A stretch of DNA of 64,000 nt from the NCBI GenBank assembly GCA_000004985.1, contig GG738860.1; one strand, given 5' to 3'. The DNA comes from Naegleria gruberi. Its lineage: Eukaryota. Of this stretch, positions 10,344-62,444 are shown one piece after another. The notes under the pieces were generated by a model. It did no database searches, had not been told where the DNA came from, and saw nothing but the letters and a program-made list of their open reading frames with translations. How positions within the stretch are numbered: the stretch's first letter is position 1; every line of letters begins with the position of its first letter. The position numbers and the translations under genes were made by a program.

Positions 10344-10745
10344 TTAAATAATATTAAATATTATTCATTCAATGAACAGATTCTCAACCATTTCGAAATC
10401 TAACAATTATTGCTGCATACGTAGGATAACACAAGATTCTCAGGTTCATAAAGTTAAATTCTAATATTTAACGGATTAATATTCCCGCCAATTTAAAAAA
10501 GTGTTTTCTCAAAAAAAAGAGTGTGGTAATATTTTGAAAATTGCCAGAAAAGTTGTTGCAAGCTAAAAGGTGTGAAGAAAAACAAGACAGGAGAGGATTG
10601 ATCAAACACAAGAATAATCGGATGACCTTTTCATCATCAACAAGAAGAGCAACAAGACTTTAATATACAGATAAAAAGGAACAACATCAGCAACCTTTTC
10701 AAATTATCAATAATACCAACACAATAATTTATTAACAACTTCATC

Positions 10746-13715
10746 ATGTTCGGAAGTACAAACAATAAGACTCAATACAATTTTGAAACCACTTCAACAA
10801 CACCTTTCCAACAACAATTACACAATGAATCAACGAGAACTCCAAACACAGCACTAAACAATCTGATCGGAAGAAAATTAATCGATACTAGTCTCTATTC
10901 TACTGATTATTCAACAACTGAGGATGCTTCAGTGTTCTATACTCCCCATTCAAACTTGGGAGGCCAGCAAGCCGACATGTTAAAGAAGAACTCTTGCCCT
11001 CAAAATCCACCAATTTCAAACACTACCAAATTTGCCCAAGCACCCTTTGGTTCATTCAATAACGAATTGAGGGGTCAATTCAAGTCATCATCTCAAATCA
11101 ATAACCATACTCAAACGAGTGGTAACAATAGTTTACTTCGCAGAGCCATCTCTCAAAAGTATTCACCAAATGTTGCAGCAAACACTGTAACTTTTATAAG
11201 TAATAACACGACAGCAAGTACTGAGGATTTGGAAGATGATTGCTTTGGATCTCCAACAACACCATCCTCGTATCATCAACAGTATGAAGTTATGACTTCA
11301 GATTCTGCAACACCAGTTTCAAAGCTTAGTACGAGTACCATTTCCAAGAAATCTCCCCTTCTGACCGATGATTATTCCTCCCATCAATCTACTAATAAGA
11401 GTACAACAGGATGTAACACTTTGAGTAGTGGCAGGACCAAGTCAAGTGAGGCACTTTCATCTACCAAATCATCGTGGTCCAAGCCAAAAGCTTGTCACAG
11501 TTTTAAGATTGATAATCCATTTCTCAATGACAAGAGTCATTTAAATGAAAATTATTCTTGCTCGTATGTGAGAGAGGACAATTTCATGGCCAATCATCAC
11601 TTTAATCGTCACAATACCAGTGGTCATTGTAATAATAGAGAGAAGAAAGCCATTTTTGAATTAAGCGTCAATGAAGAAGATTTGAGAATACTCGAGGAGG
11701 GTATTCCATATCAAAACAATTCATCATCCAACACAACGTGGTTTAATACTACCATTCAACCACAACAATTTTCCAATAATAAGGAAGAGACAATCAAACC
11801 AGTCAACCCAATTTCACCTCCATTTTTGAATTCACCACAAAGAGATCATCAAGGCAATTTTACCAAGAGCCAAATCGAGACTGACAAAAGCTACAATAAC
11901 ATTAGCAAATCTTCCACTAGTAAGGACTCTGCAAGGTATTTATCAATAATAGACCATCAACATACTATTGCATCCACCAATTATGAAAATAACAAGTTAG
12001 AGAAAATCCATACTGATCACTGTGATCCATCACATCAAATTGATACCGCACGATGTGTTCCAAAAAATTCTACATTTGAAATCAATCTTGATGGGTCGAG
12101 AAGTTGTACATCAAGCAATGATAAGCTGCAAGACTTTAAAAGTTGTATGGAAGAAGTGCAAGAAAGTGCAAAATTCCAGCCTGAAAAAAAACAAACATCA
12201 TCTCGAGGCACTACATCTGCTGTGTTTTGCTCGAGTATCATCACTCATACTGCTGCTGAAACAGGAATTGAGAATAATCCTCTACTTGACGATTGTACTT
12301 TCCTACCATCACCAATATTACCAAAGGAGAGTGTCAGGTCAAACAATACATCGACTCTACATATCATTGATCATTCTTTATTGTTCAGAGACGATCAAGA
12401 AGAAGAAGAAACCAAGTCAATCGAAAAGACAACTTTGGTTAAGCCTGATATTAATAGCAGAGAATCAACACAAGGCGACAAGATGCTTCAAGCAGTTTCC
12501 ATCAGAAATGATTTGAACCACTTTTCTAATCAACTCCAATTTGTAAGAATGCCAATTGGTGGTAACAAGGCTAGACATCAACAACAAGAACAACCAATGG
12601 TCACCCTAAAGAAAGTTACTACCACACCAAAGAAGAATATTCTCAAGCAAGAGATTAATAGACCTGCTGCTATTTCCGAATTGGCTTGCTCATTCAAAGC
12701 TAATGACGGATTTTTCATGAATCAAAGCATACTTCATCAAGATGATATGGACATTGATGATTGTGAGGAATTCGAAAAGAATAAGCAAAGATTCAAGAAC
12801 AAGTTCATCAAGAGAAGAGCCAAACTCTTACTCAACTCTGAACAAGTCAATATCATTACAGCTAGAAGCTTGAGTGAAAATCTGAGAATTGTCACTGAAA
12901 AGGCTTGCCTTCTTCAAAAGCTCAAATTACAACTTGAAGAAAAGACCTTGGCCATCCAACGTGTTTGTGATAGAATTGTCCATGAAGATTTATCTTGGCA
13001 ATTGGAAGATATCATTACAGAGTCAACAACCTTTTGGTCAACATGTGATCAAGTGAATACTGCCTCACCTTTCTCTGTTCTTCAATTTTTAAATAAGGTC
13101 TGTGAATCTGAGAATGAAATCATCAATGCCATTGAAGATTTGATTGACTTTGTCATTACCTCAGCAAAGAGAATGTGTAAAAAGCATTCTTTAAACATTA
13201 ATATAATCCTAGATACAATCAGAGAGTCTGCTGCTATAGAATTATCGAGTACAAGATCATACACCCAACTCAAATCTGCTGCCAGTAAGCAGCAACAACG
13301 TTCCTCCTCTACCAAACCATCCACCACCATTAATCACCACATTTCCTCTAACTTTTCTCCAATCACATCCTTCTCCTCCACTAGTGAATATAGCCTATAC
13401 TCGATGAAACCATCCAACAAGAATATCACCAATTTTGAGCATACCACAACACCTGAAACACTTGACCAAGTTTTTGATATCAAGAAGAGAAGCGAGCTCT
13501 TTGAAATTATTGATAATAACGTAGATACAGTGCTGGATATTTGTTCTGCCATTCGTCACTATGCCAGTGATGAAAAGATGGAAGCTCTTGATACTGTATT
13601 TGAGGAAAAGTTTTCAGCATATTGCAAGATTTTGGATGAAATGAAAAATTACTCTGGTATTGATTTTGATATTTCCCTTAGTGGTTCAGATGTCTGTGGT
13701 GTTTCCTTTTACTAA
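10746..13715 (+). CDS. large Ser/Asn/Thr/Gln-rich low-complexity protein with structured C-terminal ~300 aa, function unknown
   Basis: Uninterrupted 989-aa ORF with purine-rich leader. C-terminus has normal composition (coiled-coil-like KLKLQLEEKTLAIQ). Confidence 0.45.
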   Translation: MFGSTNNKTQYNFETTSTTPFQQQLHNESTRTPNTALNNLIGRKLIDTSLYSTDYSTTEDASVFYTPHSNLGGQQADMLKKNSCPQNPPISNTTKFAQAPFGSFNNELRGQFKSSSQINNHTQTSGNNSLLRRAISQKYSPNVAANTVTFISNNTTASTEDLEDDCFGSPTTPSSYHQQYEVMTSDSATPVSKLSTSTISKKSPLLTDDYSSHQSTNKSTTGCNTLSSGRTKSSEALSSTKSSWSKPKACHSFKIDNPFLNDKSHLNENYSCSYVREDNFMANHHFNRHNTSGHCNNREKKAIFELSVNEEDLRILEEGIPYQNNSSSNTTWFNTTIQPQQFSNNKEETIKPVNPISPPFLNSPQRDHQGNFTKSQIETDKSYNNISKSSTSKDSARYLSIIDHQHTIASTNYENNKLEKIHTDHCDPSHQIDTARCVPKNSTFEINLDGSRSCTSSNDKLQDFKSCMEEVQESAKFQPEKKQTSSRGTTSAVFCSSIITHTAAETGIENNPLLDDCTFLPSPILPKESVRSNNTSTLHIIDHSLLFRDDQEEEETKSIEKTTLVKPDINSRESTQGDKMLQAVSIRNDLNHFSNQLQFVRMPIGGNKARHQQQEQPMVTLKKVTTTPKKNILKQEINRPAAISELACSFKANDGFFMNQSILHQDDMDIDDCEEFEKNKQRFKNKFIKRRAKLLLNSEQVNIITARSLSENLRIVTEKACLLQKLKLQLEEKTLAIQRVCDRIVHEDLSWQLEDIITESTTFWSTCDQVNTASPFSVLQFLNKVCESENEIINAIEDLIDFVITSAKRMCKKHSLNINIILDTIRESAAIELSSTRSYTQLKSAASKQQQRSSSTKPSTTINHHISSNFSPITSFSSTSEYSLYSMKPSNKNITNFEHTTTPETLDQVFDIKKRSELFEIIDNNVDTVLDICSAIRHYASDEKMEALDTVFEEKFSAYCKILDEMKNYSGIDFDISLSGSDVCGVSFY

Positions 13716-14242
13716 AGATGAATTAAGTTTCCTCTTTATCATTTAATGTGTAGCCATCTACCACCAAGTTCATCTCCATTCATTGATTGTTACACACAAA
13801 GAAGAAATAAATCTCTCCTTCTTAGAGAGACATTATTATTGATACCCACTACATTTTATACAATAAGAGCATGGATATTGATTGATTATCCAATCGATTG
13901 GAGGAACATTAATTGATCAACTAGAGTGACCCTTATTACAATTAATTGTAAACACTGTATCAATACCAATCCGAAATAGGTCATAAATAGGGTCGCAGCG
14001 TTATCAACTCAACCAACGAACCTTCAACAATCTGTTCATGAACATGCTCACTCTAGTAAGCTTTTTTGTAACACGACACGCAATGCGTGGCCTTAAAGCT
14101 TTGACCTCATTATTTTGAATAATTCCATTAAGCGCACAATGTTAAAATTGTCCAAATATGGGCAATTTTATGTTGTGGTCAGAGCCTTAAATACTCAACC
14201 AAAGATTAACTTTATTTCACACACAAGCAAACAAACAAAAAA

Positions 14243-14602: not shown

Positions 14603-14731
14603 ATTCTCTGGAGAATAAAAACAATTGTATTTTTAAAGTAAAATAACCTTCATAAAATTGTTGTAATAAAGGAAATGAAATCATTGTTTTGGGAAAAGGA
14701 AACCAGGTTGCTAAACACCAGATAATTAAAA

Positions 14732-14819
14732 GGCGACTGAGGGAATTGAACCCTCGACCCTCAGTTATCTCAGCATTACTGCCTACAAGACTGATGCACT
14801 ACCACTGTGCTAAGCCGCC
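14732..14819 (-). tRNA. tRNA-Thr(UGU) with a 17-nt intron at the canonical 37/38 position
   Basis: Minus strand GGCGGCT-TA-GCAC-AGTGGTA-GTGC-A-TCAGT-CTTGTA[GGCAGTAATGCTGAGAT]A-ACTGA-GGGTC-GAGGG-TTCAATT-CCCTC-AGTCGCC. All stems pair, with one G-U in the acceptor stem. Confidence 0.75.
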
Positions 14820-15537
14820 TTACATGTAACTGAAAACATTTTAACATACATACAATATCAACACCAACCTTTATCGGCCAAGTGAACCAACGTTGAATGT
14901 TTTAATGATAATAATATTCTTATAGGGAAAATAATGTTATGAAACATCAGATTTATACTTTAGATATTGCTTGAATAATGTATGAAGATATGAAATTCAC
15001 ACCACCACCTTGGAAATATGATTTTTCAGAAGCTTTTTGGATGGAACACAGATCTTGAAATCAAATCGATTCACTTTCGTTTCATTTGACTATGGTGGAA
15101 TGAAATTTTTGATAAGTGTAAAAGTTGAACTTTGGATTTGAAAATAATATTATTGCTTGCCATTCAATTCGTTTTGATTTGTTCATTGATTGTATTGGTA
15201 TTAATCTGTTCCATGTCTATTGTGTGAAAGAGAGAAGGAAAGGAACAAGACACCACAATAAATTGAATACTCAACATTCAATAGACAATTTGTAAATTAA
15301 AATTGATCAAAACGTACTTTACACTATTTTACACTATAATTTCAATTAAACTTTTCAAATTCCTTTCCAAAATTATTATTCCGAATATTTCTCCCATTTC
15401 CTTTCCTTGAAATTACAAAACATCACAAAAAAATAGAACAAAGTTGCAACTAGATTTATTTAATTTCTTCTGCATGAAACTCTATCTCTCAAGATCCTTC
15501 TAGAAAAAAGAGAGATCATCACAAGTAGATAAAGACA

Positions 15538-17277: not shown

Positions 17278-17360
17278 GCCCGCGTAGCAGAGTGGTCAAA
17301 TGCGTAAGACTTAAGATCTTATCCCGAATGGGTTCGTGGGTTCGAACCCCACCGCTGGCA
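17278..17360 (+). tRNA. tRNA-Leu(UAA), class II with long variable arm, no intron
   Basis: GCCCGCG-TA-GCA-GAGTGGTCAAA-TGC-G-TAAGA-CTTAAGA-TCTTA-TCCCGAATGGGTTC-GTGGG-TTCGAAC-CCCAC-CGCTGGC-A. One C-T mismatch in the acceptor stem. Confidence 0.8.
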
Positions 17361-21471: not shown

Positions 21472-23342
21472 TTATTCATCTTCATCACTTATGCAATACC
21501 AATTCATTTCATTCCATTTTCTCAATTTTTTAAATCCAAAAGAAGTAATCAATGAGCTTTCCTTGATACCAATATTTCTCAATAATTTCAGTACTGTTTC
21601 ATTTGTTTCTGCATTAAAATTATTCCATAAATAATCAATATCATCATCAGAAAAGTAATATCCCAAACGATTCAAATTCTTGAAGGTTTCATTCTTTGCC
21701 AATATTTCAACAAAATCAATATCAACCACTTGCTCCTCATCAATTTCATCACCTTCATTATAAACTGAAAGATCTCGTAAATTTACGAGAATATTTGATT
21801 TGGCAAGATATTCTAAATCTGATATTGTTGATGGCATGGACAAGTGTAAAGTATTAAGGTTGGAAAAGTATTGGGAATCTGAATAAAATAACTTGAACCC
21901 ATTCAAGCAACTATTGGCTTTGTGAATTTCCAAACATTCAAGAGATTTTGCGGTCGAATTAATGACACTAACCAAATGGTCAGAACCGTGTTCTAGTTTG
22001 ACTTTTCCATTTATGAGTAATATTTGGAGATTGCTAATATAGTTGGATTGCATAATTTCATCAATATCACGAACTTGACTCAAAAATTCTAAATATGTCA
22101 TATTACTCAATGTTTCATTCTCTGAAAGTGATAAAACTCCCTTATTCGATATTTGAAACAGTGTTAAACTTTCTAACATTGGCATTTTGAACCTACAAAC
22201 AAGATCGGTAGCAAAGGATGAACAATCAAAAGTTAATGATACTAAATTTGGACATTCGATATTGATTTCCTCATTTTCCTTCTCACTACGCAATTCGAAC
22301 CAGTCTCCCTCATCAATAGTACAATATCTCAGGGATGGACATTCAAAAATCTCGAACAACTCTGCAAAAGAACAAGTGGCAGTCAAATTGTGCAATGTCA
22401 AATATTCTAATACTGGTAATGATGCAATGTAAGAAATTCCACTCGCATCCATATTTTCCAACTCCAAACTCCTCAAACAATTAGTATATCTGTTGACGTA
22501 TAGAGCTACATTATTCAAGCGTTTAGTACCTCTAATTGTCAGTGATGTTAAATTGTGCAACAAGTGTGAATCCAGATACATTCTTCCCTCTCCTGTCATC
22601 CAAAAATCCAAACGTTTAATATTCATAATGTTTACATTATCCAAATCTGAGAATAAGAGTTCAGATTGCAAACAGAGCTTTAGGCTTTTTAAATTTCCAA
22701 ATTGTTGAATATATCAGCAGGTCTGTCATATTCAGAAGATGTTATTATTGCATTTTCCATAGAGTTGAAATATTTAGATTTTACAAACTCAATCAAATCT
22801 GGTCTATTCTCATCTAAATAATAATGGAATTGCCTCAAATGTCCAACTGCTCTATAAAATTGTTTAGAAACAAGTAAAAGCTTAAAACCCTCCAAATTTG
22901 GCAAATAGGATAGAATGACAGCAATTACATCATCACAGGCATTTTCCATCACATTTTGCCGATGTTTCTTCTTTGAATTTTTTAACTTTGCTTCATCACA
23001 AATATTTGAATATTTTCTCTTCCGATCCAGTATTTCCAATTCCAAGTGTAAATGCTTAGTACGTTCCCTAGCCATCAGGAGTTGAAATATTTGATCGGAG
23101 TTCAATCCCACATCATTCAATGCTACCAATTCATTGTTAAGATTTCCATCAGAAATATTTTTTACATCTTGATTGGATAAAGATGGTTGTAGAGACATTT
23201 TTTTGGAATTGTTGCACTTTTTACAATAACAATTTATTTTTAATGCACAATAGAAGTTCATATTTAAATTTGAATATAAAAATAGAATTTTATAATAGAA
23301 TTTTATAAAAAAAAATGAGCGATTTGGCATCAAGCACAACAT
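21472..23342 (-). CDS. F-box/LRR-repeat protein; apparent 1-nt frameshift near 22690-22700 joining ORFs 23342-22689 and 22671-21472
   Basis: F-box DDVIAVILSYLPNLEGFKLLLVSKQFYRAV. Downstream frame opens as ...NLKSLKLCLQSELLFSDLDNV, then LRRs. Inserting one A in 'ttggaaattt' merges the frames. Likely start is MSLQPSLSN near 23199. Confidence 0.5.
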
Positions 23343-24466
23343 CCTATCATAGAGTTACACAATTTAATTCTCCTCATGCCTCCAATGTCCTTCCACAAAT
23401 ATTGAAACTCTTATCGGAGATTGAAAAGGAAAATCGAGTAAAAATTTTGTATGTTTGTGATGCTGGATCGAGAGCCATGTCGATTCATGATCAATCGGAG
23501 TGATTCTAGTGATTATGATGTTAGATTTGTATATGTTCATCCAGTTGATTGGTATTTGAGAGTTAGAGATGAAGTTGATTTGGAAATTAGAAAGAAGGTG
23601 ATGATTAAATTGGATCATTTGAAAGGAGATGAAACTGAGATTGATTTTGTTGGATATGAATTTAGGAAAATGTTGAGCTATACTGCAAAATCAAATCCTA
23701 CAGCAATGGAATGGATGGTTCAGAGTGAAATTATTTATTATTGTTATGATGAAAAGTGGTTGAAAGAAATGAAAGAATTTTGGAATGTTTATTATTTTAA
23801 TTTAAAGACAATTGGTATGTTCTTTCATTTGCTTTTTATTTACACAATTGATGTTTTGAATAATTTATATTTTACATATTTGGAAATATAGTATATCACT
23901 ATTTGAATATTGCAAAGGATAATTATTGTGATTATTTAAGAAACAAAGCAGAAGTGAATAGAAAAAAGTACATTTACGTAATGAGATGTTTATTGTGGGT
24001 TGAGCATGCCAAACTTTCTCACTTTTCAGCTTGGAAAAATGGACAAACTGTAGAAAAGATTACTCCAATTATACCTGTACCACCTTTCGATGTTAATCTT
24101 CTACTTTCTGAAACATTGGAAAAACAAAAGGAATATTTGGAATATCCTGAAAAGGATAAGTATCCAATACAGTTCAATTTCTTTGATAAGCAAACCCAAG
24201 CTCTTGAACAATTGAATTATTTGATTGATAGAAAGAAGGCTAGTTCTGGGCAATGGACTAAACAACCTAGAATTCCAGTATTAGACGATTGGCTCATGTT
24301 TCTTAGAATGGAAGAAAAAGTTTTTGCAGACAAGATTCTTTCACTAGAGAAGAGAAAGATTGATTGCATTACACAAGAAGAAAAGAACTCACTCCAACAA
24401 CGATTCGATTCTTTATTCTATGAGCATGTTATGGGTTTTGATAAGATTCCATCTGTATTAGAATAA
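23315..24466 (+). CDS. Pol-beta-superfamily nucleotidyltransferase, PF10127 (RlaP/YcgL)-like; frameshift near 23480-23495, intron about 23812-23891
   Basis: ILYVCDAGSRAMS ... SDSSDYDVRFVYVHP (GS...[DE]hDh NTase motif) split over two frames. GTATGT...ATATAG intron joins ...NLKTI-G to VYHYLNIAKDNYCDYLRNKAEVNRKKYIYVMRCLLWVEHA. Confidence 0.45.
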
Positions 24467-24514
24467 AGAGGTGAATTGAAAATGGAATTAATGTCTGCCA
24501 CGAATGCCTGACTT

Positions 24515-25933
24515 TCAATGGTTAACTTCTCTGGTATTTTCAAGATCGATATCATAGTCAACTTCTGGCACTTCTGATTCATGATCTTGGTATAATTCAA
24601 CTTTTTCGCTTTCTCTACGAACCATGAACCTTTCATCTCCTTCAAGACCGAATTCATTGGTGAGGGATTGTTCACGTTCTTGATTATTGGACTCATTTGA
24701 CTCTTCGCTGTTATCACTTACTGATTGATCTTTGTTTTCATCACCCTTGTCTTCGTCATTTGAGTAAGAAGGAGCATTTAATGAACTTGTATCCTTAATG
24801 TTTTGATTTCCAGATTCAACTTGGTCATTTGTTGGAGATTCAATTGAAACACTTGGTTTAGTAGACAGAGTATCCATTCTTGTGTTTGGAGGAAGAGGCA
24901 TTCCACTTTCGTCAACCGTTTTGCTGACCTCCTCTTCTGATTGTTGTGGAACTTCTCCTGGTGGAGAAATAGGCTTTTCATCCTCTTTCTCTAAATTTGT
25001 GCTGTCACTTGTCTGGGAATTAATTGGTGCTTCATTTTCTCCCAAGTTGATGATATTTGGTTGAAGAGGCTCTGGATTAATCATTGGAGGAAGAGGCATT
25101 CCACTTTCGTCAACATTTTTGCTGACCTCTTCTTCTGATTGTGAGGATTGAGCTGGTGGAACTTCTCTTGGTGGAGGAATATGCTTTTCCTCGTTAACTG
25201 AATCTGTACTCTCATTGGCCTGGGAATTACTACTACTATCGTCAGTAGCTGAACCTCTTTCCCTTGGAAGAGGTTCTGTTTGAGAAGAGCTTGTTTCCTG
25301 TGAAGGTGAAAGCGCAATTTCTGGTTCAGCAGTTGCTTTTTCTTCCTTTGGTTGTGATGCTGTTGAAGGATTTTGATTCTCTTCATTCTTAACAGGTTGT
25401 TGTTCTGAAACAGGTCCATCATTTGATTTTTCAGATTCTTCCTTTGGAAGAGGTTCAGAAGTTGGTTCAGATGACTTTGATTCATTTTCAATTGATTTTT
25501 CTGAAGGTTTCTCTGGAATTGGTTCAGATTTCAAACTAGCATCCTGCTTAATTTCAGTATTTTGCTTTTTGTTGGTAGTCCATAAATTACACATTTGAGA
25601 AAGCTCCCTTTTTGACATACCAAGCCATTTCTTTTCCTTTTTAATGTCATCCTTCAATTGTTGTAAATCTAAAGCGTACTGATTCTTCAACAAGGTATTC
25701 TTACTTCCCGAGTGAATGTTTTTAATCAATCTATTAAGAACCCTATTAGCTCTAATCATTTTCTTCATTTCATGCTTACTTCGCATTCTAATATCTAATA
25801 ATTTACATGCGTACTCATTCTCATCTGATACAACAGCACCCTCAACCATGCAAATCATCAGCATCAGTATGATGCTCATCAAGAACAGAACCAACACCCC
25901 AACGGCCCTCTTACCACCCTCTTTTCCCTTCAT
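24515..25933 (-). CDS. signal-peptide/TM-anchored acidic Ser/Glu/Pro-rich protein with internal tandem repeat
   Basis: N-terminal hydrophobic AVGVLVLFLMSIILMLMICMVEGA. Repeated ...EEEVSK(N/T)VDESGMPLPP blocks. Confidence 0.5.
   Translation of the reverse strand: MKGKEGGKRAVGVLVLFLMSIILMLMICMVEGAVVSDENEYACKLLDIRMRSKHEMKKMIRANRVLNRLIKNIHSGSKNTLLKNQYALDLQQLKDDIKKEKKWLGMSKRELSQMCNLWTTNKKQNTEIKQDASLKSEPIPEKPSEKSIENESKSSEPTSEPLPKEESEKSNDGPVSEQQPVKNEENQNPSTASQPKEEKATAEPEIALSPSQETSSSQTEPLPRERGSATDDSSSNSQANESTDSVNEEKHIPPPREVPPAQSSQSEEEVSKNVDESGMPLPPMINPEPLQPNIINLGENEAPINSQTSDSTNLEKEDEKPISPPGEVPQQSEEEVSKTVDESGMPLPPNTRMDTLSTKPSVSIESPTNDQVESGNQNIKDTSSLNAPSYSNDEDKGDENKDQSVSDNSEESNESNNQEREQSLTNEFGLEGDERFMVRRESEKVELYQDHESEVPEVDYDIDLENTREVNH
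24887..25290. repeat. about 200-bp tandem duplication inside the 24515-25933 CDS
   Basis: ggaggaagaggcattccactttcgtcaac...ttttgctgacctc.tcttctgattgt occurs at about 24887 and again at about 25087. Confidence 0.6.
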
Positions 25934-26265
25934 GTTTCAATAATACAAATAAACCAACTACAGTCACACAGATCTACAGTGATATGCTTAGTGGCTTTTT
26001 TTTTGATCTGATATTCTACATCGAATCATCAACCCTGTAAAACGACCTATTGAGATGGTGGAGAACTAACTGTAGTGTGAGGTTGATAGCTGGAGAGCGC
26101 ACATTTAAGCTAGTTATTGTAAAAAATTTAACACTACTGGTTGGAATGGATTGGATAAAATGGCATTGTATAATATGTTTGTTATCCATATATCAGCAAT
26201 TTTCAATAGATTATGAACATTTTGTAAAGTATTATTTAAAATTAATTATTTAAAAATTAAAAAAA

Positions 26266-27145
26266 ATGGCCAGTTTGGAAGAATTGTTGAGTAAACGTAT
26301 TGCAACCCTCTCACAAAATCATACACAATTTCTTCTCACAACCTCGAATGCACCCAAAATAGCCTACTATATGGGTGAAGCACTCGATGCAAAGGATGTT
26401 ACCTGGAAGAAATTTGTAGAGAAATTAAAGGCTGATTTTTCCATTGCGCAAGTGAGTGGTCAAATGATTCGGGATGGTTGTCTGGTTCGGGATGGATTTG
26501 ATATATTGTTCATGCCGGGAGGGGATCCTGCTCAACACGTCAAGTTGATGGGCGAAGAGGAAGGTATGAGGAGAGTGAAGGAATTCTTGTCTCTTCCATT
26601 GAAGGGATATGTTGGATCGTGTGCTGGAGCTTATTGTGCAATGGCTATGGAAACTATGGAAGGTTATCCGAAATTACAGGAATTTATGCCAAAAACTTTG
26701 GATATTTTGGAGGTAATTTTATAATAATTTTTAATTATTTAATCGATTGATGGAATATTGTTACAAATTATAGGGATTTATTATTAAAGATAGAGAAGTA
26801 CACAATTGGAAGAGAGGATTTGGAACATCATATGTTAAATTTACAGAAATTGGAAAGGAAATATTCGGAGAGAAGAGGGATGAAGCATCCATGTTTTACA
26901 GAAATGGTCCAATATTACATGTGACAGATTCATCTAAATGTCAGGTATTATGTGAATATACTAATGAGTTTACTGTCGATCCAGCTGTTCAGAAGGGATT
27001 CATGATTGGAAGTGCTGCCTCAGTATGTGGACGATTTGAGGGTGATAAGGGAAGAGTCTTGTTATTCTCTGCACATCCAGAAACATCTGGTGATGATATG
27101 AATCAATTATTAATCAATTCCTTCAAATTTGTTATCACTCCTTGA
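26266..27145 (+). CDS. class I glutamine-amidotransferase-like (BPL_N-type) domain protein; exons 26266-26712, 26774-27145
   Basis: DILFMPGG ... GYVGSCAGAYCAM (nucleophile-elbow Cys). 61-nt intron GTAATT...TATAG keeps frame into GFIIKDREVHNWKRGFG... Confidence 0.55.
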
Positions 27146-42470: not shown

Positions 42471-43057
42471 TTATTGACCTTCAAGCAAGTGCTTCTTGAC
42501 AAGAGATTGAATGTTTGATTTATCGGCAAATCCAACATGTCTGTAAACAAATTTACCACCTGGTTGAACAAAGAAGAGAGTTGGCAATGCTTCCACTCCG
42601 AGTTCTCCAGCAAGATCTGGCAAGTTATCAGAATTAATGGTAACAAGTTCAATCTTTCCATTATGTTCAGTGACTACATTTTGAAGAATTGGTCCAAGCC
42701 TATGTATTATTTAATCATTTTCAATCATTATTATTAAAATTTAATATTATTTTGAATATTAATTCATCATTAATCCACACATTCCGAATAATATCATCCG
42801 AAAAGAATCACAACATTTAATGAATATTAATTAATAAACATTAAGACTTACATTTTACATGGTCCACACCAATCAGCATAAACATCAATAATGAATGGCT
42901 TTGTAGTTTCCTTCAAATGTTTAATGAAATGATCATCATCCTTGATGGAAATAACATGTTCCGAAGTGGCAGAGGCATAGAATCTAGTTTGAAGAGATGT
43001 GATTCTCAAATTCTTAGAGGCAACTGATTTAATCAACTTGGATGATTGTCTGAGCAT
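42471..43057 (-). CDS. thioredoxin with mitochondrial-type presequence; exons 43057-42852, 42699-42471
   Basis: MLRQSSKLIKSVASKNLRITSLQTRFYASA presequence. FIIDVYADWCGPCK-M|LGPILQNVVTEHNGKIELVTINSDNLPDLAGELGVEALPTLFFVQPGGKFVYRHVGF. Intron GTAAGT...ACATAG, phase 2. Confidence 0.8.
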
Positions 43058-49787: not shown

Positions 49788-52550
49788 ATGACACGAATTG
49801 CACCCTCAACGGATAAAGATGAAGAAATGGATGATAATCATGCATTATCAGATGAAGACTCTCAACAAGAAGAGGTAACTCCAAAAGAGAGGAAACCACC
49901 AGCCTCTATCAAGTGTCTCTTAATTGTATTGGTGGTTGTCGCTGTTGTCGCCACCGTTCTTCTTCTCACGACCATTTGGATTTCATGTTTCTCATCGAGT
50001 GTTTCATCCCTTTCTGTCTCACTCATGTCAGAACAATTTACCAAAATCATAAGTTTCACAGACTCTACTATTAAGGATGTAATAATGGTCTCTGAGAATG
50101 CAAAGAATACCATGTGGTGGGATTANNNNNNNNNNNNNNNNNNNNNNNNNNNNNNNNNNNNNNNNNNNNNNNNNNNNNNNNNNNNNNNNNNNNNNNNNNN
50201 NNNNNNNNNNNNNNNNNNNNNNNNNNNNNNNNNNNNNNNNNNNNNNNNNNNNNNNNNNNNNNNNNNNNNNNNNNNNNNNNNNNNNNNNNNNNNNNNNNNN
50301 NNNNNNNNNNNNNNNNNNNNNNNNNNNNNNNNNNNNNNNNNNNNNNNNNNNNNNNNNNNNNNNNNNNNNNNNNNNNNNNNNNNNNNNNNNNNNNNNNNNN
50401 NNNNNNNNNNNNNNNNNNNNNNNNNNNNNNNNNNNNNNNNNNNNNNNNNNNNNNNNNNNNNNNNNNNNNNNNNNNNNNNNNNNNNNNNNNNNNNNNNNNN
50501 NNNNNNNNNNNNNNNNNNNNNNNNNNNNNNNNNNNNNNNNNNNNNNNNNNNNNNNNNNNNNNNNNNNNNNNNNNNNNNNNNNNNNNNNNNNNNNNNNNNN
50601 NNNNNNNNNNNNNNNNNNNNNNNNCTGCTTCAAATGAGACTGATATATCGGGGATCAACTTTGATTGGTACTTTGGATTTGATATTTCTGTTGCAACTAT
50701 TAGTAATTATCTAAAAGATATAACTGAAAAAATCACTGGATCTTTGGCTTTTATCATTGAAATTGAGACAGAATTTATTGTTGCCTCAAGTTATCCAGAG
50801 ATTCCCGTGACCAAATGGGATGATAAAGGAAATCAAGAAAGAAAGAAGGCTATCAATTTTGGAGTACCAGAAGTTGAGCAAGTTGGTCTATTCCTCTATG
50901 AAAGATATCAGAAAAAGTTGGATTCATTAAGTTGTGGAACTTTTGAGTTTTTATCATTTCAGGATAGATATGTTAATGTGTATAGAATGTGCAATCAAGC
51001 CAACATTAATTGGTAAGTATCCTGTAAATATTAATTACTGACCGGTGGAAAAGGTTATTTGTATTCTCAGTTCCTCAATGGAACTATCTAGGAACCATGA
51101 TTATCGCCATAATTGCAGCTCTTTCTTCATCTATTGTAATTGTCATTGTTGGTCTCTTATTTGGGGTATATTCCTCCTTCAAGATTGTAAAGCCGTTCCA
51201 TAATTTAATAGATTTATTTGCAAGTGTTTCAAACATGGATTTGGATAATATCATTGTTCTTCCATCTCCTTTCAGAGAAGTTCATCAATTACAATTACAC
51301 TTCAAAACTATGGTTGTTAAGATTAAACAATATCGATGCTTTATTCCTCCTCACTTACTAGCTCAAATTGATGCCGAAGGAGCTGGTGATGAAAATGATA
51401 GGGATTTTGAAAAACCTTCCATTAGAGCCGCCAAGGATCACAATACAACACAATCTTCTCTGAGAAGTGGGAAATCTTCGAGACATTCTGGAATTTCACG
51501 TTCAGGAAATGCAACATCAAATTATCATTCAACCTCCAACCAATCATCATTCCGTCCCGTCTCCAAATCACTTTTCAAATTGGGGCTTGAAAAGAAGAAG
51601 ATTACAGTGGCCAACTTTTATTTTGTGGGATTGGACTATTGTATGGAAAATTTATCAGACTCAGAGCTTGTAACAGTAATGTCAGATTATTTCGAAGTCA
51701 TTCAAAAAGTTGCCAAACTCACTCTAGGACAATTGGGTTCTTTTGAGGATAATTCAATGACCATCAGCTGGAATTCAACATCAGAAGTTTCCAATCATGA
51801 AGAGAAGGGTGTTGCCTCCTCTCATCAAATCCTCCTTAAACTTTCACAATTGAAAGAAACTAAATGGAAAAAGAAGGAACATTTAGTTAAGAAAGATTTA
51901 TTACAAAACGTTGATTTTAGAGCTTCAATTTTAACACAAGTTTGTAGATGTGGTAATTTAGGTATGTTTAATTGATTGAAATTTAGTCTAATTTACATTA
52001 TTAGGTACGCAAGAAATTAAAACCTACTCAATTGTTGGAAGTTATCTTCACAATTTACACAAGATTATGAAACATGGTTTGAAGTTGAATGTCAAATTGA
52101 TTGCTTCTGAGGAAACTTTGTTTAAATCGAATGATACTCACCAACATAGATTGGTGGGAGTGAAGAAGGTTCTTTCTCCAGATGAAACAAGCGCAGAATT
52201 CTTCTCTGACTCTCAAAAGGTAAATAAGAGAAAGATTAAATTATTTGAGATTGGAGAAACTAATCAAGTCAATGAGGATGGTAAGTTTATTTTACAATTT
52301 CTTTGAAATTTTTAAACGAACACAATCAGAGTGGATGTATGAATTACAACAACATAAATCAAAGGAAAAATGGAAACTCTACAATGAAGCCTGTCTATTA
52401 ATGGAAGAGGAAAAGTATGAAGATGCCATTACTAGTTTCGAATCCTACTTGTTATCATATAGAGCAGAAACCAATGAAGATATATGTGCTTGTTATATGA
52501 TTAAGAAATGTTACAAATTGCTGCAAAACAAAGCTAACCAAAACAATTGA
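49788..52550 (+). CDS. two-TM receptor with extracellular Cache-like sensor, HAMP-like linker and a degenerate (likely inactive) class III cyclase-homology domain plus helical C-terminus; 5 exons, interrupted by assembly gap
   Basis: TM1 LLIVLVVVAVVATVLLLTTIW. Sensor ITGSLAFIIEIETEFIVASSYPE. TM2 IIAIIAALSSSIVIVIVGLLFGVY. KITVANFYFVGLDYCMENLSDSELVTVMSDYFEVIQKVAKLTLGQLGSFEDNSMTISWN parallels cyclase VTVLFSDIVGFTSL...YFT...IE..GGTV.KFIGDAVMAVFG with both metal Asp replaced. Introns 51976-52018 and 52272-52331 verified in frame. The 51017-51095 junction is not in frame. Confidence 0.5.
50126..50624. other. assembly gap (499 N)
   Basis: Run of N inside the CDS above. Confidence 1.
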
Positions 52551-57192: not shown

Positions 57193-60100
57193 ATGTTTGT
57201 TGTTTCCCCTTCCAAAAAAAAACAATCTCTACCCAAAAAATTGTACAAGTTTTACCTTAGACACTGTTTCCTTAGAGAAAACAACAAAAATATCAACACC
57301 AGCAGCACTCATCACTCTATTCAATCTATCTATTTGGTCATGAATAGTACATCTAATATTTTAGCCACGGGGGATGTATCGAGCAGTTTGGGAAGAGACT
57401 CTCGTTCATTTGAGAGAGGTTTCTTCTCCATGGCTACATCTCAGGCTCATGTGGGAGGAAGTGGTTCCATTGTTTCTAGTAATTCGAATGGTGATGGCTC
57501 CGATTCATTATCTGAATATACAAATTCTTCCATTGTGGCCAGTTTTGAGGAGAAGATTTCCACATTAATCTTGAGTCTACAACAACATTCAGGCTTGAAA
57601 GAAACAAATTGGTGGAACTTTTTCTTTACACTTTTCTATCATTGTATTGTTATATGGAGTATGGTATTTCTTCCGTCCATAGACGAGAGAGGTATGAATT
57701 GGGATGCCAATGGAAAGTGGTTGTGGAGAGCAACCAATTATTTAGTAACTCTCTCCCTCAATATTTCTTCCTTTGATGTTGTCATTGGTATTCTGGTGGG
57801 TTTCTTTGTTATTATTACTACATGTATTATCATGGTAGGTGTATCATATAAGGCCATCCAATCAACGAGCAAATATTGGAATAGAATCAAGGTGATCACA
57901 AGAGTAGTATTGGGCTTTCTTCTTTTAACTTCAATGATTTATTCCTATGTCTATAGTTTGATTCTGTCATGTAATTATGGCACCAAAGTTCAATTAGTTG
58001 TTAATGAACAAACTGTGGAGGTTTTGCGAGACTTTCAACTTGTGGCTTGTACAAGCTCTATGAATTCTGCTTTCATTGCTGTGGGTGGTTTCTTTTTCAT
58101 TGTTTTACTAGTACTAAACATACTAGCAACACTAGTTCTCTTTGACAACAATCCAACGAGTAAGAATTGGTTTTGTGCAGAGACCAACCTTGCCTTTATT
58201 CCAATAGTACCATTGAGTAGCGTTTTTATTATCCTGATGGGTGTGTTACCTAATCGAGCTTCATTTGCTTTTATTCTTCCAATTATTTACATTGTTTTTT
58301 CTCTAGGATATATTGTATTCTTCTTCTACATGTTACCCTTCTACCGAAGAATGGAGAACTCTATATATGTTGGATTTCATTTTGCTAGGTTAGGATCTGC
58401 TATTGGTTATTTAATTTCTAGTATTGTAAATAACATCTCAGGAGTATCAGACACTGTGAAATTAGGCATGTTGGGAGTTGTATTGGGACTGGCTATTATA
58501 TTTGCAATTTCTGCCTTTTTTGCATGTGAATTGTACTTGAGATTGGCTTGTGCCTCCATTAGACAAATTTTAACTGAAAGTGAGCTCTCCAAAGATGAAA
58601 AAACTGGAGGAGGAAGTGTAGCTGTCAATATTGAACGAGATGCAACATTCCTCTATCAAATTATAGAATCTCAAGGCAAACTAAGACAATTGAAATTATT
58701 CTTCCGTTTCTGCAAGTCTTACAAGAAGATGGTTGGTGATGATATATACACTGATCTGGACTCATGTCTCAGATTAATTAAGGGGTTATTTTCTCAGAGA
58801 ACCACCAGTAAGATGCCTTTTGGTGTTTTACTTTCCTCTGCTGTTATTGTTGCCTATTTTAATCCAATTATTGTATTGAGTATTTCAGTTTCAACAACAA
58901 TGCTAAAGAGAGCTCAAAAACAAGTGCACAACATTATTGGAAGATATCTTGTCTTGGAGAAGACTAAAGATTTTGAGTTCCTCTATGGTAAGGATGCATC
59001 TGGTAAAAACATTATGGAAATTAAGAATTTGATTTCCAAATTAGAAAGGAAGCAATTAATTATTCATTATTTACACAAGGCCTTTTGGAAAGAATTTATT
59101 CAAAACGATCAGATTGATGTTGGTAAGGTGGAGAGTATTAATAGACAAATTACCTCCCTCACTTTATCTTGTAACAGTTCGTACGAGGCTCTCTCACAAA
59201 GTTATCCAAGTGACAAGACTATAATCAGATCTCATGCAAGATTTGTTGAAGAATGTTTATTTCAACCTGAAAGTGCTAATGAAATGTTCCAAGAAGCTCA
59301 GCAAATTGAAGAAGAAGAAACTGTTAATGCAAGAAAGTTCTTACAAAAGAATAGGACAAATAAGATTGTTCCAACCATGTCCACTCTAATAATTGATCAT
59401 TCAACTGAGCAAATGAAACAAAATCCAATTAATTCGTCAATGGACCACGATGACGATATTGAAAATGAAAGATTTGATGGTGTTGAAAATACAGAGTCAG
59501 CCACCAAAAAGGTAGACTTGCTATTCAGATCCTCCCTTGCCTATTCTATGAAAAATCAAATTCAACTTTCATCATTTATTGTATTTTCCATTATTTCAGT
59601 AATCTTATTATTGTGTGGTATGATTTTGAGCATTGTAATCTCCTTAAATGTTTCGGGAGATATTTATTTATCCAAAGATATATGTATGCCGGCTGCTGTA
59701 CCACTTGGGTTAACAAGAAGAGTAAGAGAGAAACAAGCAAGAATGACACTTCTCCCTTCTGATATGGAATGGCAAGCTAATCATGTTTCAAAATTGCAAA
59801 ACTTTTTCAAAACTCTTCACACGTTACAAGATTTGAGTAGCACTAATGAGATATCTCCTGCAGTAAGAGCTGATTATGTAAAGAACACAAGAAAATATCG
59901 TCAACCATTGTTGATTTATTCAGACACCAATGTGAATGTTTGGAAGAATTATTCAATTGATAGAAATATTTCTGTTGCAGATATTACAACTTCACTGATC
60001 AATAACTGTGAAGTGATGATTGATTATACTGATGAACAATACAATCATACTGCTGATAGTATGAATTTCATGTACCTATACCTTAATAGAATTAACTTTA

Positions 60101-62444
60101 GTTTAGGATATGAAACATTTTGTAATGAATTCTTGCTTAGAAATCAAGAAAAGAGTACCATGTACAGAGATACCTTCCTTATTTACTATGCATCTTCAAC
60201 TGCCTTGTACGTATTGTGTGCTCTTGTCATGATTCTAGCTACCAATTATTTCCTGTCCTCCCTAAAAGATGCAATCAAGTTGATAGACAAACGTATTCCA
60301 AAAGATAAGATAGGAAAGATTTATCAAACTTTGAATACAAAGATTAATGACGACATGCAAATAGGAAATTCCGGTTTGTTTGCTACGCTTACTAAACCAA
60401 ATAATCTTATTGCTATATTAGTTATTTCTATCATAGTGGTTACAGTTGGATGTGTTTCATTATTCTTTGTTGAGACTACCATTAATTCTCAATTTTCTGC
60501 AAACGCCATTCAAAATATTCAAGCCAGTGTGGTAATTATCATGACTTCACAACGTATTGGTTTGAGATTACAGGAAATTTTCATTTATGGTGTGAAGGAT
60601 ATATCTAGCAGCTTGCCATTAAAGAAATCCACCTTAACTTCAGCCACTGAACTTCAAAATTTCCATGAAGACCACAAAAACTTGGTCACTCTTATTAGAA
60701 CTAAATGGAATGGTTTACTTTATGGTACAGAAGATAATGACTATCAAAAATTGACAGGTGTTTATCAAAAGATTGATAATATCATTAATGGTATTGATGA
60801 TCGTAATCAAACAAGTTTGATTAATGGTACATCTAGTTGTGAAAGTTTGTCTGATCTCATTACTTATATCCTTAACTCGGGCACTTTATTCAATGAAGAC
60901 GTTTATTACAATCCAAACAAGTACACTGGTCCACAAGTATTTGCATGGTCTCAACAATTGTTTTTCAAAATAGATCACTTGGGAGAATCTCTTACTAAAT
61001 TTATTGAAGCATATTCCAATTATGCAAAGAATCCATCCCTTGCCATTACAATTTCTTTCTTTATATTTGGTTTCATAGCTCTGATTGTTTTGATTTATAT
61101 CACCTATACATCAATGAGATCTTTCTGGGATGAATACAAACAGTTTAGAATAATGTTGAACTTTTTCCCAAGTGACTTGTTGGATGATGAGGTATTGAAA
61201 AAGTTTATTCTCCACAAGGAACTTCCATCAAAAATACAAATCAAGAAGAAACAAACTTCAGCTGCAAGTGGATCAGAAATTAATGACGTAATGCACAGTT
61301 CTGTAGACGGAACAGTAATGTGTAATGAAAAGGGTGAAATTTGCTTATTCAATCCTGTAGTGGAAAGTTTCTTCAGTCTCAAAAGTGGAGATGTAGTAGG
61401 ATTGAATGTTTTAACACTTTTTAGTGAACCTTATCATGGACCAATCAGTAAAGTTATGAACCACTTGATTGACAAGTCTATAACAAAGGGAGAATCTCAT
61501 GAAGTGGAATGTGTAAGAAAGAATCAATCCTATTTCCCTGCAAGAGTTAACATTTTTGCAAGCCATGCCAAGATTATTTTCATTATTAGAGACATTACTG
61601 CTGAAAAGAAACAAAACATCCTTCTTGAAGAAGAGAAGAAAAAATCCGAGTCCTTATTGAGAAACATCCTTCCAGAGGAGGTGGCCAAACGTTTAAAGTC
61701 AGGTGAAACATTTATTGCCGATAATTTTCCTGATATTACATGTTTCTTTTCTGATATGGTAGGATTTACAGCAATTAGTTCCACAATGACAGCCACTGAT
61801 CTCGTTAAAATGTTGAATACTATTGTGAATGGATTTGATGATTTAACAGACTTCTATAAATTGGAAAAGATCAAGACTATTGGTGGTAAGTTTTTAGTGA
61901 TTATATTTTAAATAACTATTGAGTAGATGCTTACTTTTGTATTGGAGGTATTTCTGTTGGTCACACATCAAGCGATCACCCAGAAAAGGTTTTAAAGTTT
62001 GCCATTGATGTTTTTAATGTTCTAAAGAGTTATAATTCTCAAAATTTTGACAAGCAAATTAATATTAGAGCTGGATTAAATACAGGTAGTGCTGTTGCAG
62101 GAGTAATTGGTAAACGAAAATTTGCTTTTGGTAAGTTGGAATAGTTACTGAGCTTGGATTTTAATATTTTACAAGACTTGTGGGGAGACGCGATTAACAC
62201 CGCTTCTAGAATGGAAAGTACATCTGAAACTGGAAGAATTCAAGTTAGTAGATCAACTTATGAAAGAGTATACGATTTGGGATACTCATTTGAGGAAAGA
62301 GAGCAAAATGTTAAAGGAAAAGGAATGATGAAATGTTATTTATTAGACAAGTCCCATCATGTTGATCCAATTGTAAGGGATAACTTTACTACAACAGATT
62401 TTTCTGATGTCGACAGCAAGGATGATCAAATTGTGTACAAGTAG
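57193..62444 (+). CDS. large multi-pass membrane protein with PAS domain and C-terminal class III adenylyl/guanylyl cyclase catalytic domain; exons 57193-61885, 61927-62130, 62176-62444
   Basis: More than 12 hydrophobic helices. PAS: VDGTVMCNEKGEICLFNPVVESFFSLKSGDVVGLNVLTLFSEPYHG...ARVNIFASHAKIIFIIRDITAEK. Cyclase: FFSDMVGFTAISS...LEKIKTIG|DAYFCIGG...RAGLNTGSAVAGVIGKRKFAF|DLWGDAINTASRMESTSETGRIQVS. Introns of 41 and 45 nt (GTAAGT...AG). Confidence 0.8.

Follow-up and report, generated by a model that had tools for sequence, protein, structure and literature searches.

Does the nuclear genome of Naegleria gruberi encode a working member of RlaP, a mainly bacterial family of DNA polymerase beta (Pol-beta)-fold nucleotidyltransferases, and does the break in the reading frame of that gene belong to the organism or to its deposited sequence? 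The question is raised by positions 23315-24466 (+) of a 64,000-nucleotide (nt) stretch of contig GG738860.1 (GenBank assembly GCA_000004985.1; hereinafter designated the window), in which a preliminary description, made from the letters of the DNA, had recognized an intron-containing nucleotidyltransferase with its catalytic motif split over two frames. The frame-corrected product, 358 amino acids (aa) long with a placeholder residue at the break, is a PF10127/RlaP Pol-beta-fold nucleotidyltransferase, and we regard the identity of the locus and its structure as a two-exon nuclear gene as established with high confidence. The explanation that we favour as a whole, at a probability of about 0.5, is that this gene is the N. 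gruberi orthologue of a heterolobosean RlaP clade, would encode an active enzyme of ~358 aa if intact, stems from an old horizontal gene transfer (HGT), carries a young and real deletion in the reference sequence, and is represented in GenBank by an artefactual model.

Profile comparison places the frame-corrected protein in Pfam PF10127 (RlaP, "RNA repair pathway DNA polymerase beta family") with E = 2.3e-37 and 129.5 bits, the gathering score being 23 bits, in agreement with the RlaP/YcgL-type assignment proposed before. A phage nucleotidyltransferase PHROG is also matched (E = 5e-37), while a scan of the protein against NCBIfam gave zero matches and a PDB sequence search matched no chain. 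The complete Pol-beta catalytic set is encoded (G51 and S52, D67 and D69, and D111) but is spread over two frames, and as deposited no single uninterrupted frame carries all of it. Judged against a 65-sequence family alignment, the frame-corrected protein keeps 28 of 28 family-invariant residues, including the Gly and Ser of the GS motif, the two Asp of the DxD motif and the third Asp; the other invariant residues retained are KSNP, E-W, HY, KKY-Y-R, PP and K.

For the N. lovaniensis orthologue, AlphaFold predicts (pLDDT 85.7, pTM 0.85) an N-terminal nucleotidyltransferase fold, whose beta-alpha core spans residues 47-120, and behind it a helical domain with helices at residues 121-370. With this model as the Foldseek query, the best PDB matches are KNTase/ANT(4'), Tam41 and HalB (probability ~1.0, E = 1e-4 to 1e-3). 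ANT(4'), Tam41 and Hailong HalB likewise place a helical domain behind a Pol-beta nucleotidyltransferase fold, but they are generic Pol-beta nucleotidyltransferases that act on other substrates and differ in sequence (10-15% identity, TM-scores 0.26-0.43). The RlaP proteins of Pseudomonas fluorescens and P. aeruginosa and NrdC.11 of phage T4 share with the N. gruberi protein the profile match, the GS and DxD motifs and the third Asp. The Pseudomonas enzymes further consist, as the Naegleria model does, of an N-terminal nucleotidyltransferase domain and a C-terminal helical domain, with three strictly conserved Asp residues (PMC12776372); we compared the two-domain build with the PfRlaP crystal structure by way of its description in that paper. 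Unlike these bacterial and phage genes, the N. gruberi gene is eukaryotic, nuclear and intron-bearing, has no RNA ligase neighbour, and is frameshifted in its reference copy, and the Naegleria and Willaertia proteins have four additional residues in the GS-DxD loop and ~100 inserted residues in the C-terminal half. The locus adds an ordinary eukaryotic protein, not described before, to a known enzyme family and does not represent a system of a new kind.

Three open reading frames (ORFs) make up the gene (Table 1). Frame A opens at ATG 23315, begins MSDL, reads to KILYVCDAGSRAMSIHDQSE and ends ...ILYVCDAGSRAMSIHDQSE*; frame B, shifted by +1 relative to frame A, contains DSSDYDVRFVYVHP... and DSSDYDVRFVYVHPVDWYL... 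and stays open to 23814; and the third ORF, past the intron, reads VYHYLNIAKDNY...KKYIYVMRCLLWVEH... and closes at TAA 24464-24466. The frame A stretch is 64-72% identical to the orthologues in tblastn. Removal of the intron fuses ...NLKTI with VYHYLNIAKDNY (VYHYLNIAK...), in agreement with all orthologues, and the intron is a genuine spliceosomal one. The same codon is interrupted in the same phase by a 62-nt intron in N. lovaniensis and by a 40-nt intron in a metagenomic Naegleria contig (L004), and despite the common position the sequences of these two introns are unrelated to that of N. gruberi. The Willaertia and Acrasis genes have no counterpart of this intron, and a second intron common to N. 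lovaniensis and L004 is absent from the N. gruberi gene.

Table 1. Positions of the features of the RlaP locus in the window
Feature	Position	Strand	Description
Exon 1 part a, frame A	23315-23500	+	Met1-Glu62; from ORF list, translation, tblastn and codon alignment
GS(R) nucleotidyltransferase motif	23465-23473	+	GGA TCG AGA in exon 1 part a; GS itself at 23465-23470
Frameshift site	23501	+	Lone T in place of a whole codon; starts TGA 23501-23503 in frame A
Exon 1 part b, frame B	23502-23814	+	Asp64 onward; final base is the first of a Val codon
DxD motif	23511-23519	+	GAT TAT GAT in exon 1 part b
Third catalytic Asp (Asp111)	23643-23645	+	In exon 1 part b
Spliceosomal intron	23815-23891	+	77 nt, GTATGT...ATAG, phase 1
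Exon 2	23892-24466	+	Helical C-terminal half including KKYIYVMRCLL and RKKASSGQW, then TAA
GenBank model 'intron'	23449-23524	+	76 nt, GTATGT...TAG; removes YVCDAGSRAMSIHDQSE and DSSDYDVR

The split of the nucleotidyltransferase motif over two frames, as first described, is real in the sequence but lies at 23501 and not at 23480-23495. This position comes from a codon alignment in which the window reads CAA TCG GAG T GAT TCT AGT GAT TAT GAT and N. lovaniensis (L001) reads CAA TCC GAA ATG GAT TCT AGT GAT TAT GAT. Of codon 63, which is ATG in N. lovaniensis, AAG in L004 and TTA in Willaertia (L002) and corresponds to Lys in the N. fowleri protein, only a T is left; the net loss of 2 nt falls in the loop that connects the GS motif to the DxD motif. 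Even with the genuine intron removed, the reference therefore has no uninterrupted frame, TGA following directly after codon 62. No other defect is present in the 1,074 nt of coding sequence. Past selection on the protein is apparent from the comparison with N. lovaniensis, which gives a nonsynonymous divergence (dN) of 0.30 and a synonymous divergence (dS) of 2.45, the latter saturated, for a ratio of ~0.12. The dN to Willaertia is 0.379 for N. gruberi and 0.371 for N. lovaniensis, indicating no relaxation or acceleration on the N. gruberi lineage. As the rest of the gene is undamaged, the lesion is either very young or not real.

Splicing around the break would be costly. The statement that the site leaves no room for an intron has to be modified, since frame-restoring GT..AG pairs exist and the GenBank model uses one of them, but it holds to the extent that every such splice removes conserved catalytic residues. 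We rejected GT-AG introns of 31 nt (23479-23509) and 22 nt (23479-23500) as well as all other frame-restoring GT..AG pairs, each of which deletes conserved residues. An alternative genetic code with TGA as a sense codon is likewise rejected, since it takes frame A at once into TAG and further stops.

The closest relatives of the protein are heterolobosean. C9374_002427 of N. lovaniensis (64% identity, 373 aa), an unnamed product of N. fowleri (60%) and ABK040_010408 of Willaertia magna (52%) align over nearly the full length. The eukaryotic proteins have the motifs VNRKKYIY and RKKxSSGQWxKEP in common, and all heterolobosean orthologues, that of Acrasis kona included, are open through the active site, the frame being broken only in the sequence of N. 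gruberi NEG-M. Next come hundreds of proteins of ~260 aa with 30-43% identity over the N-terminal half, most of which are metagenome sequences and which, where a source is named, are bacterial (Pseudomonas, Bacillus and others). The family is predominantly bacterial, as had been claimed: among the matches listed, those with a named source are bacterial apart from a handful of eukaryotic ones, and a small number of eukaryotic members is likewise described in PMC12776372. In an exhaustive profile search of 1.84 billion representatives, only five proteins score below E = 1e-30, all of one eukaryotic group, and further matches begin at ~1e-30. The five are the Willaertia representative, fragments on two Naegleria-like metagenome contigs, "ycgL" of Acrasis kona (KAL0476686.1, 277 aa) and a 310-aa protein on a 24.7-kb metagenome contig. 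The neighbours of the last on its contig are Vps16, MCM5, SET-domain and RGS/GPS genes, which mark the contig as eukaryotic, and the A. kona gene stands between a D123 (CDC123-family) gene and an ABC-transporter gene. This exhaustive search, together with a cluster look-up, also recovered an ENA fragment (P0133) with 99% identity and the N. gruberi model that belongs to its cluster, both of which a word-indexed protein search had missed; in a second round the word-indexed search missed the N. lovaniensis orthologue as well, and its negatives are accordingly weak.

The position and phase of the intron common to Naegleria, together with partial microsynteny, make the gene a long-standing resident of Naegleria nuclear genomes. 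The thioredoxin and BPL_N neighbours of the N. lovaniensis gene correspond to 42486-43003 and 26275-27139 of the window, respectively; CFAP77, which lies downstream of the gene in N. lovaniensis, Willaertia and L004, is not adjacent to it in N. gruberi. The proposal of a spliceosomal intron in a resident eukaryotic gene is thus borne out by the intron shared with N. lovaniensis and L004, by the eukaryotic neighbours, and by orthologues in eukaryotic contexts in Willaertia, Acrasis and the 24.7-kb contig. The suggestion of a possible old HGT is compatible with the data, although no donor lineage is resolved. A neighbour-joining tree was built from seven eukaryotic sequences and 74 bacterial-type representatives, of which the profile search supplied 70 and the first search 4. 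It unites the eukaryotic proteins, but with a bootstrap of only 43%; Naegleria plus Willaertia reach 100%. The data are read most simply as one old acquisition in Heterolobosea, although neither monophyly nor donor is firmly established. The gene would probably have been acquired from bacteria or their phages before the split of Naegleria, Willaertia and Acrasis and kept under purifying selection since.

An alternative origin of the locus, as bacterial contamination or a very recent bacterial insertion, has in its favour that the family is overwhelmingly bacterial, but it is practically untenable in view of the spliceosomal intron, the scaffold context and the heterolobosean orthologues: the intron is common to other Naegleria, the locus is flanked by N. 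gruberi genes on a scaffold of 537 kb (the products of five single-exon window ORFs are letter-identical to N. gruberi proteins of the 536,960-bp scaffold, e.g. XP_002678793.1 and XP_002678927.1), its 30-37% GC is that of the rest of the window, and identity is 52-64% to heterolobosean proteins versus 32-42% to bacterial ones. A second alternative takes the public gene model at face value. The model (EFC46052.1 / XP_002678796.1 / D2VB28, locus tag NAEGRDRAFT_79267, 332 aa), found by cluster look-up, joins ...EKENRVKIL to FVYVHPVDW... at its extra junction, and among donors at 23430-23469 and acceptors at 23500-23539 the splice 23449-23524 is the only one that reproduces it; a literature search on the locus tag found nothing. 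Were it correct, the gene would contain a real 76-nt intron and encode a catalytically dead RlaP derivative devoid of GS and DxD. The stretch does have canonical ends, the donor hexamer of the true intron and a similar length (76 versus 77 nt), and its excision restores the frame; a GT..AG pair also flanks the same stretch in N. lovaniensis, as expected from conservation of the coding sequence. Its GC content is 41%, however, versus 19% in the true intron, it encodes in two frames 17 and 8 residues nearly identical to those of the orthologues, and of the 18 nucleotides that differ in N. lovaniensis, 11 are in the third position of a codon. Mapped onto the N. lovaniensis AlphaFold model, the splice cuts into the core of the fold and takes out the last part of strand beta-1, the GS helix and the first part of the DxD strand, and no orthologue has an intron at this position. 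The model lacks 7 of the 28 invariant residues, and its PF10127 match drops to 82.7 bits and starts only at profile position 43. Base composition, conserved coding in two frames, lost invariant residues and the truncated Pfam match together make it very unlikely that the GenBank model is correct; the 76-nt 'intron' is almost certainly spurious, a device of gene prediction for stepping over the frameshift. Nor does programmed +1 ribosomal frameshifting offer a probable way to a full-length active enzyme. Ribosomes would decode GAG, skip the U of the in-frame UGA and continue with GAU, and the recoded product, should this improbable event occur, would be one residue shorter than the orthologues. 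Exactly +1 is needed, the U behind the in-frame UGA recalls antizyme (UCC-UGA-U) or bacterial RF2, and the downstream frame is fully conserved. Against this, GAG-UGA-U is not a known shift motif, and we know of no precedent for it as a shift site; shuffled sequences fold at least as well as the 100 nt downstream (z = +1.7); an ordinary codon occupies the site in four orthologues, which would make it a unique recent invention; and no regulatory rationale is evident. The site thus shows neither a known motif nor a stimulatory RNA element nor conservation in relatives. If recoding did operate here, active RlaP would be made only when UGA termination is inefficient, and an RNA-repair gene of Heterolobosea would have evolved a new, regulated recoding site.

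With the splice and the recoded product set aside, the choice lies between a genuine 2-nt deletion and an error in the sequence, and we lean narrowly towards the former; the copy would be either a null allele in a heterozygous clone or a pseudogene of very recent date. In the NEG-M reference, translation would then end at the TGA that separates the GS motif from the DxD motif. The disappearance of two neighbouring bases from sequence that is neither repetitive nor homopolymeric, here GAG-T-GAT, is atypical of Sanger consensus errors. A metagenome assembly (ENA ERZ929261) of an N. gruberi-like strain, 99.4-99.5% identical to the window, provides an independent comparison. Its contig L003 corresponds to 23961-25985 with 99.5% identity, 10 mismatches and no gaps, so that the two assemblies agree base for base in length over 2,025 nt; the RlaP part carries a single conservative change (E to D), and the contig ends 460 nt short of 23501. 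Contigs L007 and L008 match the window at 99.4%. L007 (k127_128461; window 10588-13794) has a 1-nt deletion at 12487 that divides the D2VB23 orthologue (989 aa) into 588 and 390 aa, in addition to in-frame indels of 3 nt (11775-11777) and 6 nt (after 12583), implying that frameshift variants occur between near-identical N. gruberi genomes, unless the L007 deletion is itself an assembly error. A sequencing or assembly error at 23501, with codon 63 intact in living NEG-M and a normal active RlaP of ~359 aa, falls somewhat short of even odds. It would account for a single defect in 1,074 nt, for 28 intact invariant residues and for a N. gruberi branch without acceleration; the codons flanking the break are identical or synonymous to those of N. 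lovaniensis, and four relatives are intact at the site. The type of base loss, the agreement in length elsewhere in the same assembly and the frameshift variation between near-identical strains speak for a genuine deletion, none of them decisively.

Several observations weigh against the explanation that we favour. The perfect state of all other parts of the gene would be explained just as well by an assembly or base-calling error in the 8x Sanger draft, and no independent read, transcript or second-strain sequence was recovered across 23501. Look-ups by exact match with each plausible ORF product of the region found none, a degenerate DNA pattern spanning it had no match in the JGI metagenomes, homology searches with exon 1 and the upstream F-box gene (word-indexed and lossy) gave no near-identical-strain contig over it, and a protein-guided metagenome scan returned distant relatives only. 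On the side of function, the Pfam alignment covers only profile positions 4-163 of 249, and the eukaryotic proteins bear insertions, one of 4 residues in the GS-DxD loop and several more in the C-terminal half. An RNA ligase, whether RtcB or a 5'-phosphate ligase, was found neither in the window ORFs that were scanned nor in the neighbourhood of the gene in L001, L002, L005 and L006, and the operon context behind the family name is therefore missing. PF10127 owes the name RlaP to the many bacterial and phage members that reside in RNA-ligase operons; such operon-type linkage is not expected in a eukaryote, and not every PF10127 member has it.

What the intact protein would do can be predicted by analogy. 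Two Pseudomonas RlaP enzymes add one or two nucleoside monophosphates (NMPs) to RNA 3'-OH ends with a preference for damaged RNA, and RlaP was proposed to restore nucleotides removed by ribotoxins before ligation (PMC12776372, a preprint of December 2025). The same catalytic residues and two-domain build suggest the same chemistry for the heterolobosean enzyme, which in its intact form probably adds NMPs to RNA 3' ends: one or two NMPs would be transferred to the 3'-OH by two-metal catalysis involving the GS motif and the three Asp residues. Its likely role would be the replacement of nucleotides that damaged tRNA or other RNA has lost, ahead of ligation. The heterolobosean lineage employs RtcB-type ligation in tRNA splicing.

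The immediate value of the locus is in curation, as the mis-modelled XP_002678796.1 / D2VB28 lacks the active site and ought to give way to a model that is corrected or flagged for the frameshift. The conserved intron-bearing clade, comprising Naegleria including the pathogen N. fowleri, Willaertia and Acrasis, suggests eukaryotic uptake and retention of a repair step and is of modest interest for eukaryotic RNA repair and HGT, given that nucleotide addition by RlaP has been shown in bacteria only recently. Should the frameshift prove real, NEG-M would offer a naturally RlaP-deficient strain to set against others.

Around the gene, a divergent F-box gene (D2VB27; 22689-23198, -) starts 116 nt upstream of the RlaP ATG, and the two probably share a short bidirectional promoter region; behind the F-box gene lies an ORF for a leucine-rich repeat (LRR) protein (21472-22671, -). 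A convergent neighbour, 48 nt downstream of RlaP (24515-25933, -), encodes the 472-aa Ser/Glu/Pro-rich protein XP_002678927.1, which has no Pfam match and whose gene contains internal ~140-nt repeats (24886-25022 versus 25084-25229, ~79% identity). Elsewhere in the window are a 91-nt tRNA-Thr(TGT) gene that is probably intron-containing (14730-14820, -) and a tRNA-Leu(TAA) gene (17278-17360, +). GC content is 30-38% except in the lowest stretch, 50001-52000 (25.6%), and long ORFs that overlap in several frames on both strands at 49788-51016 suggest low-complexity or repetitive sequence. Finally, a 1572-aa ORF (57193-61911, +) with TmcB-type TPR and PAS domains and the start of an adenylate/guanylate cyclase domain matches no deposited protein exactly and is probably one exon of a larger gene.

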